IMG/VR virus record: IMGVR_UViG_3300047539_000043
Span: 6,301-70,300 of that record
Length of the DNA: 64,000 nt
Direction: 5' to 3' (one strand)
DNA from: a virus
Taxonomy: Duplodnaviria > Caudoviricetes
In this document: positions 2,207-5,154 of the stretch, piece after piece
Numbering within the stretch: position 1 is the first letter of the stretch
Layout: every line of letters begins with the position of its first letter
Notes under the pieces: model-generated
What the model was told of the DNA's origin: nothing
What the model saw: the letters and a program-made list of their open reading frames with translations, nothing else
Database searches by the model: none
Translations under genes and position numbers: made by a program

Positions 2207-2626
2207 ATGAACGAGCATGGATTTGGTCCGATAGCGGCGGCATGGCGGGGCGCTCAAGGAGCTACAGGCGACTGGCCACCACCGTCCCCGCCTCCGGCGC
2301 ATAACAAGCTCCCGCTCAACCCGGCCGGCCGCAAGGAATATCCGATCGCGTCAGGGCTGTTCGACTACTTCCCCGACGCGCTAACCGCCATAGCGCACGT
2401 TTCGTTCAATGGTAATCAACAGCATAACCCCGGTGAGCCACTTCACTGGGCCCGCGGCAAGAGCGACGATCATGCCGACACGATGCAGCGCCACTTTCTT
2501 GAGCGTGGGCAGCGTGACACCGACGGCCAGTGGCACGCCGCCAAGATGGCATGGCGCGCTCTCGCCATTCTTCAGCTGTTGATCGAGAAAGAGGAAGGCG
2601 CGCCGGCGCCACCCGGGGCAAAATGA
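2207..2626 (+). CDS. dATP/dGTP diphosphohydrolase-like protein (DUF5664 type)
   Basis: RKEYPIASGLFDYFPDAL..IAHVS..GNQQH.PGEPLHWARGKS.DH...RH...D.DG..H.AK.AWRALA. GAAGGA SD before ATG 2207. Confidence 0.82.
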   Translation: MNEHGFGPIAAAWRGAQGATGDWPPPSPPPAHNKLPLNPAGRKEYPIASGLFDYFPDALTAIAHVSFNGNQQHNPGEPLHWARGKSDDHADTMQRHFLERGQRDTDGQWHAAKMAWRALAILQLLIEKEEGAPAPPGAK

Positions 2627-3285
2627 GCTTCTCCTGGTCCTTCAGCAAGCTGACAGCATCCGAGACCTGCCCCTATCGGTACCAGCAGGTTGACGTGCTG
2701 CGGAACTACAAGGACGAAGACCGTACCAATCTGGACTGGGGAACCGAGGTCCACTCAGCGTTCGCCAAGTCTCTTATCAGTGACGACCCGTTGCCCACCA
2801 CGATGACGCCTTGGGAACATTGGATTACAGATTTTAAAGCGCTACCCGGCCAAATAATCGTTGAAGCAAAATGGGCTCTTGACCGACAATTCAACAAGTG
2901 CAATTGGTCCGCGCCGGTAGCATGGTATCGCGGTAAAGCCGACGCTACTCGTATTGACGGCCCGGTGGCGGACGGGACCGACTGGAAAACTGGAAAGATT
3001 AAGGAAGACGACACACAACTGCTGCTAATGGCCCAGCTGGTCTTTGCGTACTTCCCTGAGGTCAAGCGCTGCCGGCAACGGTTCGTTTGGCTTCAGCATG
3101 ATTGCGCTACGGAGAGGTTCTACAATCGTAAGGACATGGCCCAGGAGTGGCTCGGGATCCTACAGCGTGTAGACACGCTCGAGAAAATGACCGAGGCCAA
3201 TGTGTTCCCGCCGAAGCCGGGCCGGCTGTGTCGTTCGTGGTGTCCCGTGACCGGGTGTATTAACCACGGGAAAAGTTTCCACTAG
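2623..3285 (+). CDS. PD-(D/E)XK (RecB/Cas4-like) exonuclease
   Basis: WSFSKL...CPYRY, GTEVH, E.K, RGKAD, DWKTGK..D..QL, C-terminal LCRSWCP..C. ATGA overlap with the upstream stop. Confidence 0.88.
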   Translation: MSFSWSFSKLTASETCPYRYQQVDVLRNYKDEDRTNLDWGTEVHSAFAKSLISDDPLPTTMTPWEHWITDFKALPGQIIVEAKWALDRQFNKCNWSAPVAWYRGKADATRIDGPVADGTDWKTGKIKEDDTQLLLMAQLVFAYFPEVKRCRQRFVWLQHDCATERFYNRKDMAQEWLGILQRVDTLEKMTEANVFPPKPGRLCRSWCPVTGCINHGKSFH

Positions 3286-3311
3286 ACGGTAACACGGTCT
3301 CATGCTACACC
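3283..3311 (+). promoter_or_regulatory. putative sigma70-type promoter for the accessory secreted-protein gene
   Basis: TAGACG-N17-TACACC, with GCTACAC resembling the alphaproteobacterial -10. ATG of a 21-aa leader ORF at 3319. Confidence 0.45.
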
Positions 3312-3338
3312 GCCGGGCATGATAACAGATCGAACCGT

Positions 3339-3360
3339 GCTTATCCGGTTGACCCCCACA
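3339..3360 (+). repeat. left 22-bp inverted repeat
   Basis: GCTTATCCGGTTGACCCCCACA is the exact reverse complement of 4339-4360. Confidence 0.95.
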
Positions 3361-3380
3361 CAGCTAACGGAAGTCCCCAA

Positions 3381-4334
3381 ATGAAAAAGCTCCTAGCGGC
3401 TCTCGCAATCTCTGCCGCACTGATCGTTCCGGCGTCGGCTAATAACATTTGTGCTTCCGTAGAATATACATATCAACGATGTACGGCGGCTTGTGGAACC
3501 ATGGAACACCCTACTCCAACCGCAGCCTGCTTAAAGGTAAACCTAGCCCAATGTCGGGCTCCTAGGGACGCCTGTCATGCGTTGCACGGCATCGCGGACT
3601 GCGGATTGTTTTCGCATTTGGCCAAAACGGATGTCCAACTCGGCTGTGGGGTTCCACACACCACCGCGACAGTCGCGCCTGCTCCCGCTCAATCCCGACG
3701 GGAGAAAGCCGCGAAAGTCACTGCGCCCGCCCGAAAGCCGAAGGATACTTGCAACGGCGATCTTACTTCCAACGGTTGCGTGCCGACGCCTGCACCGCCA
3801 CCTCCGCCAGCTATCAATACCACTGTCGGCGACAATCAAGTGCCGCCTAACGCCAATCAAGCGGCACCGGCTAACACGTCGCCGCCAGCGCCCTCAGGCG
3901 GCTACGGTCCCCCGTCCGCCGATTGCAGTACAATCACCGGGCCGGGCATGAGCGGTGGAGGGCCACCGAATTGCGGCCCCACTGGCAATGCGCAGCCAGG
4001 ACAGTCGGGGCCTACGCCGCCGAACAAACAACCCGACTCCGCGCGTCAGCCGACTACGCAACAGTGGACGCCGGGGGCCGCCCCCGCACTCCCCACAGAC
4101 GCACTCCCCACATATGCGGACGGTACTCCTTATGACCCTTCCGATATATCCGCTCCATCCGATCCACACTCCAAGGAACGTTGCTTGGTGGCGTTACAGA
4201 AACTTGCGCCTCACTCAATCGGCCCGGACTGGCTTGAACATGAAATGGCACGCTCACACTGCTATGTGGACGGCACCCCGATGTCGAAAAAGGACCAACT
4301 CAAGTTTGAGCTACAGAAGCAAAGTGGTGAGTAA
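3381..4334 (+). CDS. secreted Cys-rich / Pro-rich protein of unknown function
   Basis: Signal peptide MKKLLAALAISAALIVPASA, Cys-rich N-terminal domain, Pro/Ala/Gly-rich linker. ATGA-coupled to the 3319-3384 mini-ORF. Confidence 0.8.
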   Translation: MKKLLAALAISAALIVPASANNICASVEYTYQRCTAACGTMEHPTPTAACLKVNLAQCRAPRDACHALHGIADCGLFSHLAKTDVQLGCGVPHTTATVAPAPAQSRREKAAKVTAPARKPKDTCNGDLTSNGCVPTPAPPPPPAINTTVGDNQVPPNANQAAPANTSPPAPSGGYGPPSADCSTITGPGMSGGGPPNCGPTGNAQPGQSGPTPPNKQPDSARQPTTQQWTPGAAPALPTDALPTYADGTPYDPSDISAPSDPHSKERCLVALQKLAPHSIGPDWLEHEMARSHCYVDGTPMSKKDQLKFELQKQSGE

Positions 4335-4338
4335 ACGC

Positions 4339-4360
4339 TGTGGGGGTCAACCGGATAAGC
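4339..4360 (-). repeat. right 22-bp inverted repeat
   Basis: TGTGGGGGTCAACCGGATAAGC is the reverse complement of 3339-3360. Confidence 0.95.
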
Positions 4361-4445
4361 GTGGATCGAACCAATCTCATTCTCTTCTCAGCGCTCGGTT
4401 GGATCATTGCCGGGGTGCTAGCTCTCTCACAAGGAATAGGCCACC

Positions 4446-4760
4446 ATGAACATCAGCACAGCCCTGGACCTAAAGAAGTCATTTGGCAATGCCAAGCAAG
4501 GGGACCGCATAGTCTACTTCACCGGAAACCTCATGTTTTCCCGGCAATTCAGCAAGACCGTGGACGAAAGCGACCGAGTGGACAGATTAGCAAACGCAGC
4601 CTGGAAGTTGTCGGGGGCCAAGTGGGATCCCAACGCGCGGCCGGCGGCCAAGAACGGCAACACAGGCCAATGGGTATTCACCGGGGAAAGGCGCGCCCTG
4701 CTCATGCAGCGAAAACTCGCGGAGCCATTCGGCACAGAATACATCATAGAAAAGCTGTAG
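4446..4760 (+). CDS. hypothetical protein
   Basis: AAGGA/AGG SD, 104 aa, fits the compact gene order. Confidence 0.7.
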   Translation: MNISTALDLKKSFGNAKQGDRIVYFTGNLMFSRQFSKTVDESDRVDRLANAAWKLSGAKWDPNARPAAKNGNTGQWVFTGERRALLMQRKLAEPFGTEYIIEKL

Positions 4761-4769
4761 GAGCGCATC

Positions 4770-4880
4770 ATGTTGTACGGCATCATCACCGGCTTATTCA
4801 TCGGCCTCGGGCTTGGGCTCCTGTACGCCATCTTACGCGAGTTGCAGGCCATCCACACCACACTGCCCATCAAAAGGTAA
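4770..4880 (+). CDS. small single-pass membrane protein (36 aa, not in ORF track)
   Basis: AGGAG SD. MLYGIITGLFIGLGLGLLYAILRELQAIHTTLPIKR. Confidence 0.65.
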   Translation: MLYGIITGLFIGLGLGLLYAILRELQAIHTTLPIKR

Positions 4881-4884
4881 AACG

Positions 4885-5154
4885 ATGTCCTCATCAAAAG
4901 TGTTTTGGGACGCACTACGCAAGAACGAAGCACAAGCCGCGGACGCACATGACGAGCGGTCGCTTGCAAACCCATACTACAGCGGATACGCTTGGTGGTG
5001 GTCAGACGCGATGGGCCACGAATATGGCCCATACGAGAACCAACGAGCCGCGCTGCATGCACTGCTCAAACATATGGCCCCACGAAAGGGGTGGTTCACC
5101 AGGTTCATCGAATGGATGGCCCCGCTGATGGATGACGAAGGGAGGTACTTGTGA
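4885..5154 (+). CDS. hypothetical protein
   Basis: MSSSKVFWDALRK... The stop overlaps the GTG of the next gene. Confidence 0.65.
   Translation: MSSSKVFWDALRKNEAQAADAHDERSLANPYYSGYAWWWSDAMGHEYGPYENQRAALHALLKHMAPRKGWFTRFIEWMAPLMDDEGRYL

Follow-up and report, generated by a model that had tools for sequence, protein, structure and literature searches.

Why should a single gene in a phage genome be enclosed by perfect inverted repeats? The question is raised by IMGVR_UViG_3300047539_000043, a 70.3-kb IMG/VR virus record rated complete, of which we analyzed a stretch of 64,000 nucleotides (bases 6301-70300; hereafter the window, to which all coordinates refer unless a contig is named). An original prediction made from these letters alone had proposed an invertible ON/OFF switch or a small mobile cassette. 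We conclude with high confidence that the segment 3336-4363 is a mobile insertion cassette (MIC), namely a non-autonomous derivative of an ISAcr1-like insertion sequence (IS) of the IS1595 family, in which a passenger gene replaces the transposase between two 25-bp terminal inverted repeats (IRs) of the left (IRL) type. It is a new example of a known element type in an unusual location, a phage genome.

MICs are defined by IS-type IRs around a passenger coding sequence, absence of a transposase, flanking duplications, mobilization in trans and a length of ~0.7-3 kb (PMC4337579; PMC6199540). The phage element fits this definition in size and structure, having 1028 bp, one 317-aa passenger, two IS1595-type IRs and no transposase. 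Filled and empty phage alleles, together with a homologous cassette flanked by TATGTTAT at another locus, document its movement as a unit.

Structure of the element

The segments 3339-3360 (GCTTATCCGGTTGACCCCCACA) and 4339-4360 are exact reverse complements over 22 bp, as had been predicted; such a repeat pair was not obtained in any of 100 dinucleotide shuffles, and the 22-mer, allowing up to three mismatches, occurs only at these two places, whether the window or the entire 70.3-kb record is searched. The full terminal repeats extend to 25 bp and agree at 23 of 25 positions; the tips of the two arms read CGTG and CACG, with one of their four bases matching. The 'GT' flanks and 2-nt indel described earlier are there as letters, but they are part of these 25-bp repeat tips. 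The gene-proximal arm (3336-3360, plus strand, CGTGCTTATCCGGTTGACCCCCACA) and the gene-distal arm (4339-4363, minus strand, reading CACGCTTATCCGGTTGACCCCCACA) are both of IRL type; the terminal IR core is CCGGTTGAC.

The element is flanked by an 8-bp target-site duplication, GATCGAAC, at 3328-3335 and 4364-4371. The direct repeat GATCGAACC that had been noted at 3328 and 4364 is also present; its reading as a tRNA or attachment site is unsupported, since ARAGORN detects no tRNA in the window.

The passenger open reading frame (ORF; 3381-4334, plus strand) fills 954 of the 1028 bp, lying 20 nt from the proximal IR to its ATG and 4 nt from its stop codon to the distal IR. The G+C content of the cassette is 59.5%, against 54-55% in the flanks. 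This sole long ORF has no Pfam match, and the entire 70.3-kb record gave no match to the IS1595 transposase domain (PF12762), with control genomes positive; therefore, the element is a non-autonomous derivative rather than an IS proper. A composite transposon was rejected, as there are only 25-bp ends with a 20-nt leader and a 4-nt trailer around the ORF and no complete flanking IS copies. A miniature inverted-repeat transposable element (MITE) is ruled out by the single ORF spanning almost the whole element and by homologues with conserved protein motifs.

Filled and empty sites in the phage population

The element lies between two plus-strand phage genes, one for a PD-(D/E)XK (Cas4-like) nuclease on its 5' side (2530-3285; PF12705, E = 2.8e-9) and a 104-aa gene of unassigned function on its 3' side (4446-4760). 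Empty sites were located by look-ups with the exact sequences of both neighboring proteins among contigs from other samples. In nine independent metagenome contigs from different samples the two genes are only 124 bp apart, and both proteins are identical; the nuclease protein is likewise identical between filled and empty contigs. In all nine the spacer corresponds to window positions 3286-3335 plus 4364-4445 with one GATCGAAC only, and a tenth contig has the same 124-bp spacing by its gene table only. The check suggested with the original prediction, to look for empty sites in related phages, thus gave nine precise examples.

Across the kilobases adjacent to the site, the empty contigs are 99.2-100% identical to the window; one contig is 97.5% identical, with an alignment reaching ~3.3 kb upstream. 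BLAST alignments of the empty contigs break exactly at 3336 and 4364, the duplicated bases being common to both sides, and so delimit the entire plus-strand cassette as 3336-4363. The cassette is 100% identical in five filled assemblies (the window and four others) and always has one orientation, which points to a single event. Filled contigs came from samples 3300036903, SRR11570166, 3300050192 and SRR35931278, and empty ones from, for example, SRR8693972, SRR35570663 and SRR35912776. The insertion is recent and still polymorphic at the population level in this phage. Neither the predicted empty-site junction in viral contigs nor the exact 22-mer in IMG/VR viral contigs gave a match.

A 58-kb phage contig from sample 3300056587 (L036:1-82) ends one base within the duplicated 8-mer and starts ATCGAACCAATC. 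Such an end would be expected if the assembler had stopped at a site that is polymorphic for filled and empty alleles in this sample.

The same comparison bears on how the DNA arrived. Illegitimate or homologous exchange with a bacterial locus carrying IS remnants on both sides could also have brought in the gene; phage genomes are mosaic, and one boundary between mosaic segments (2536-2614) is just 0.8 kb upstream. However, the novel DNA starts and stops exactly at the IR tips, and a perfect 8-bp duplication of a sequence that is single in the empty allele is the signature of DDE transposition, unexpected under such an exchange. Over 14 further elements bounded by these IRs show this signature as well. 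We consider entry by recombination very unlikely.

Relationship to IS1595-family insertion sequences

We scanned for the 19-nt IR core in one genome per prokaryotic species, which gave six loci, and in metagenome contigs, which gave 35. Most often the arm reads CATGCTTATCCGGTTGACGCCCACA, and the tips seen are CATG, CGTG and CACG. The proximal arm of the phage differs from CATGCTTATCCGGTTGACGCCCACA at 2 of 25 positions, and this commonest sequence borders transposase genes in two loci (L028, L062). In four loci (L028, L029, L062 and L066) the same IRs bracket genes with the Zn_ribbon_IS1595 (PF12760) and DDE_Tnp_IS1595 (PF12762; NF033547) domains, so that close variants of the repeat do lie beside transposases, where the original prediction had suggested looking for the 22-mer. 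These autonomous copies have perfect 8-bp duplications of their own (CTTCATAC in L028, CCTTCAAC in L029, GAACCAAC in L062 and GAATGCTT in L066), and the IRs of L028, L062 and L066 have 23-24 of 25 bases in common with the phage arm. Both the 8-bp target duplication and the two transposase domains are traits of the IS1595 family (PMC8101967; PMC12561309).

Among named elements, ISAcr1 of Acidiphilium comes closest; its transposase and that of L062 are 66% identical. On the Acidiphilium cryptum plasmid pACRY02, ISAcr1 has the same kind of ends and an 8-bp duplication, ATATATTG. Its IRL, CTTGCCTATCCGGTTGACTCCCATA, belongs to the same IR family, matching the phage arm at 19 and the commonest arm at 21 of 25 positions; in both elements the target duplication is 8 bp and the coding sequence begins ~35-50 nt inside the IRL. 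In contrast to ISAcr1, the phage element carries its 317-aa passenger in place of the transposase. It also differs from the ISAcr1 group in having two IRL-type ends, whereas the second arm of the autonomous copies is of a distinct right (IRR) type, GGTT[T/A]TCACCCATG. ISAcr1 relatives, annotated as 'IS1595-like element ISAcr1 family transposase', are located on plasmids of A. cryptum and A. multivorum. The IR matches of our scans are mainly in Alphaproteobacteria (Xanthobacteraceae, Rhodospirillales and a Rhizobiales-like isolate), and bacterial genomes with a match have one copy each.

The duplicated 8-mers of elements with these IRs look alike (GATCGAAC, TATCGAAC, GAATGAAC, GAACCAAC, GAACAGAC, GAGCAAAC and CCTTCAAC), which suggests a loose target preference, approximately GAAyGAAC.

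The kinship of the arms also bears on a possible role in RNA. If the segment is transcribed through, both arms are present in one transcript, and the 5' leader and 3' end of the passenger mRNA could pair over 22 bp, circularizing the message and controlling its stability or translation. The arms co-vary among cassettes, with C in both arms of the phage element and G in both arms of L021. However, the same sequence forms the end of autonomous ISs, whose second arm is different, and conservation reaches the tips and the duplication junction, a pattern predicted for the binding site of a transposase. The co-variation would arise just as well from a need for both arms to fit one transposase, or from copying of one arm onto the other. 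A primary function of the repeats in RNA is very improbable in our view, and any RNA pairing would be a by-product.

The invertible switch can be dismissed with near certainty: a site-specific recombinase would flip the 1-kb segment and uncouple the gene from an outside promoter and leader, for which the perfect 22-bp IRs around one gene and a leader-frame ATG outside the left repeat speak, but the repeats, with their 8-bp duplication and known empty sites, are transposon ends of IS1595 type, the proposed promoter region shows no promoter-like site in a consensus scan, a Shine-Dalgarno-like site lies inside the segment, the orientation is the same in five of five independent filled assemblies (which display the majority state only), and the whole record has no match to resolvases/invertases (PF00239) or tyrosine recombinases (PF00589), domains detected in 13 and 14 of 14 control genomes, respectively. 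The earlier statement that the window has no recognizable recombinase or transposase extends to the entire record for these two domains and PF12762. Of the alternatives offered with the switch, the non-autonomous IR-bounded element is supported by the empty sites and the IS1595-type IRs, with a target duplication of 8 bp instead of the suggested 2 bp.

Several points weigh against assignment of the locus to a MIC. The exact IR variant of the phage (CCCCC) was not found adjoining any transposase, and its matches in L025 and L027 are single and unpaired. Both phage tips (CGTG and CACG) depart from the commonest CATG; relatives whose duplications are intact, however, can have the same tips (L047, L050, L066, L068 and L070). 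Bacteria yielded no donor copy of precisely this cassette, the closest relatives having 72-80% DNA identity, and the passenger protein was not found in 401 sampled genomes of one alphaproteobacterial order, that of the Xanthobacteraceae metagenome-assembled genome G001. Finally, transposition is deduced from its scars, a mobilizing transposase in the host is presumed, and expression of the passenger in the phage is a prediction.

Under the MIC model, a transposase acting in trans, presumably from an ISAcr1-group IS of the host bacterium, would recognize both ends during infection, as the scars suggest. Insertion of the 1028-bp unit between the Cas4-like nuclease gene and the gene that follows, separated by a spacer of 124 bp, would then duplicate GATCGAAC. 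In effect, the passenger is a 'moron', an accessory gene dispensable for phage growth, gained by transposition.

Leader frame and expression signals

Transcription of the passenger is most likely to occur by read-through from the phage operon, because the cassette is co-oriented with the phage genes and has no convincing terminator, and because a promoter and terminator consensus scan of 2900-4800 revealed no promoter-like site and terminator-like sites at chance level only. The promoter earlier placed at 3283-3311 finds no sigma-70-like match in this simple scan.

Translation would probably start from the passenger's own site, a Shine-Dalgarno-like GGAAG read from the sequence (3369-3373, plus strand), which lies inside the element 7 nt before the ATG and is kept in the L021/L074 cassette as aaGGAAGtcccccATG. 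A short upstream frame, which spans the IR and stops at the start codon, may help in this. This frame (3337-3384, plus strand) runs from a tip codon (GTG in the phage, ATG in most relatives) through the IR, reading VLIRLTPT.., and its TGA overlaps the passenger ATG (ATGA). In the phage it is open further upstream to the ATG at 3319, and the resulting 21-codon ORF (3319-3384) is the leader recognized in the original prediction, which correctly described its ATGA overlap with the start of the ORF 3381-4334.

The arrangement recurs in related cassettes. The tip ATG of the relatives is at element position 2, and their frame through the IR reads MLIRLTPT... The overlap between leader and passenger is ATGA in the window, L074, L057, L052, L070 and L051, TGATG in L068 and L053, and ATGtTGA in L071. 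In 11 of 30 distinct leaders, the tip frame ends no more than a few bases from the start codon; for the other open frame the number is 3. This count takes in some doubtful ORFs and related leaders and is suggestive only. The leader frame is possibly a translational coupling device inherited from the parent IS.

A further frame begins at the ATG 3319 in the empty allele (3319-3335 joined to 4372-5128). It starts MITDRTNLILFSALGWIIAGVLAL, is membrane-helix-like and continues across the 104-aa gene in a different reading frame. The insertion splits this frame after six codons; in the filled allele it stays open through the right IR (4340-5128), with a GTG at 4361. The frame is not called by the gene finders tabulated for these contigs and may be spurious.

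Passenger gene and its relatives

The 317-aa passenger protein (P0001) has an N-terminus, MKKLLAALAISAALIVPASA, that is signal-peptide-like by eye and ends in ASA. Its N-terminal part is variable and rich in Cys, the middle is Pro-rich, and the conserved C-terminal domain (~60 aa) has two cysteines. In an alignment of the five relatives, the Pro-rich middle holds an invariant Cys-containing motif, DCSTITGPGM.GGGPPNCGPTGN, and the invariant residues of the C-terminal domain are C268, W284, C294 and G298. The protein looks like an exported, disulfide-bonded protein of unassigned role, judging from these features.

P0001 has no family match in Pfam, PHROGs or NCBIfam, and the ESM Atlas gave no usable match and a poor whole-protein model. 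A profile search of 1.8 billion representatives returned only the five close relatives and proteins with the common C-terminal domain. This domain also occurs at the C-termini of ~15 other proteins, of which the ten that were scanned all have no Pfam family. Its AlphaFold model comprises three helices with a pLDDT (predicted local distance difference test) of ~90; Foldseek found no match to it in PDB, and VIA-align gave only non-specific ones (best Z 3.8).

Four homologues with 50-66% identity are encoded in non-phage contexts beside DsbA-like, glutathione S-transferase (GST) and TonB genes. The homologue in L021/L022 (L021/L074), which is 58% identical, lies between the same repeats with two mismatches per arm. 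The L021/L074 cassette has its own duplication, TATGTTAT, at an unrelated locus, and its flanks beyond the arms are unlike the phage. The homologues in L020 and L024 have the distal arm only, the proximal IR being decayed in L020 (L020:1440-1530, where the distal IR is good) and absent in L024, and that in L023 has neither arm. The bacterial passenger copies in L020 and L024 look like immobilized cassettes.

Other cassettes with the same ends

The scans revealed about ten further transposase-less elements of 316-1090 bp with the same IRs, including L047, L050, L053, L056, L057, L061, L068 and L070. Every IR pair has a matching 8-bp duplication except the second pair in L053. The passenger ORFs of the gene-sized cassettes are mutually unrelated and mostly belong to no known family; one is C5 DNA-methylase-like (PF00145). 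In most cassettes the ORF starts 34-50 nt from the IRL-type tip, the exception being L056 (135 nt). One 605-bp element is present at two sites (L047:688-1292 and L050:1511-2115), with IRs matching over 37 bp and different 8-bp duplications, GATCGGTC and GAATGAAC. It looks like a second, active non-autonomous family member.

Three unrelated loci (L026:3494-4632, L071:16-819 and L080:27-1096) have a gene for the RNA-guided nuclease TnpB (NF040570, PF07282, PF01385) that starts immediately after an ISAcr1-type IRL arm, and in L026 the gene is bracketed by two arms. TnpB appears to be a passenger of IS1595-type cassettes here, outside its usual IS200/IS605 or IS607 setting.

With passengers as different as a secreted protein, a C5 DNA methylase and TnpB (three loci), it can be speculated that the ISAcr1-like group is a general single-gene shuttle, although we regard this only as a tentative proposal. 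Unrelated ORFs would be placed at the start position of the transposase and turned on via the tip-opened frame (C-ATG, MLIRLTPT..) that ends on the passenger start, so that expression would depend on transcription and translation entering from the flanks; the phage copy would then represent delivery into phages showing no integrase during infection.

Comparison with known systems

Among described MICs are MIC231 of Bacillus cereus with IS231 ends (Chen et al. 1999, as cited in PMC6199540) and the Xanthomonas MICs with TnXax1 ends (PMC4337579). The phage element resembles them in carrying a passenger between IS-type IRs, with target duplications and no transposase; mobilization in trans, known for those MICs, would apply to the phage element by analogy. 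MICs also have a conserved stretch beside the left IR in common with the parent IS (PMC6199540), the counterpart of which in the phage cassette is the short leader behind the IRL. Unlike the IS4/IS231 or Tn3 types, the phage element belongs to the IS1595 family with its 8-bp duplication, and it sits in a phage genome showing no integrase.

Like the vMITEs (PMC11602168), it is a small, IR-bounded, non-autonomous element, of a kind that is rare in phage genomes and shared with host bacteria, and it was recognized by comparison of filled and empty sites. MITEs, however, are non-coding and usually shorter, whereas the phage element has 1028 bp, nearly all of it one expressed-looking ORF. With the Hin/Gin/Cin-type and Fim-type switches it has in common IRs around a ~1-kb segment that contains or controls a gene; it differs from them in having no recombinase gene, a single orientation, transposon ends, a duplication and an empty site.

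Small, non-autonomous, IR-bounded elements are also present in phage genomes as the mycobacteriophage MPME elements. How phages gain accessory 'moron' genes usually has to be deduced. In this case the event is caught in the act, with the same phage seen with and without the cassette, textbook scars and an identified parent IS family. It is a clean, naturally occurring case of a gene gained through transposition by a phage showing no integrase. Insertion sequences and their derivatives are rare in phage genomes (PMC11602168). The IR is a sequence tag that ties the phage to bacteria with ISAcr1-like elements, and the matched filled and empty alleles make the role of the passenger protein directly testable. 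The wider family of cassettes with the same IRs, including the TnpB carriers, may interest researchers of mobile DNA.

Genomic context

The genes around the cassette are all on the plus strand and include, by Pfam, a family A DNA polymerase, a DUF4406 protein and an SNF2 helicase. When 4 kb spanning the site were compared with GenBank phages by blastn, a single short and distant match resulted. The window and two of the filled contigs, L016 and L017, part at a sharp mosaic boundary (2536-2614), and these contigs have a different gene upstream of the nuclease. Apart from this boundary and one or two isolated substitutions, their cassette and remainder are nearly identical to the window; therefore, the cassette has spread across, or survived, recombination between phage variants.

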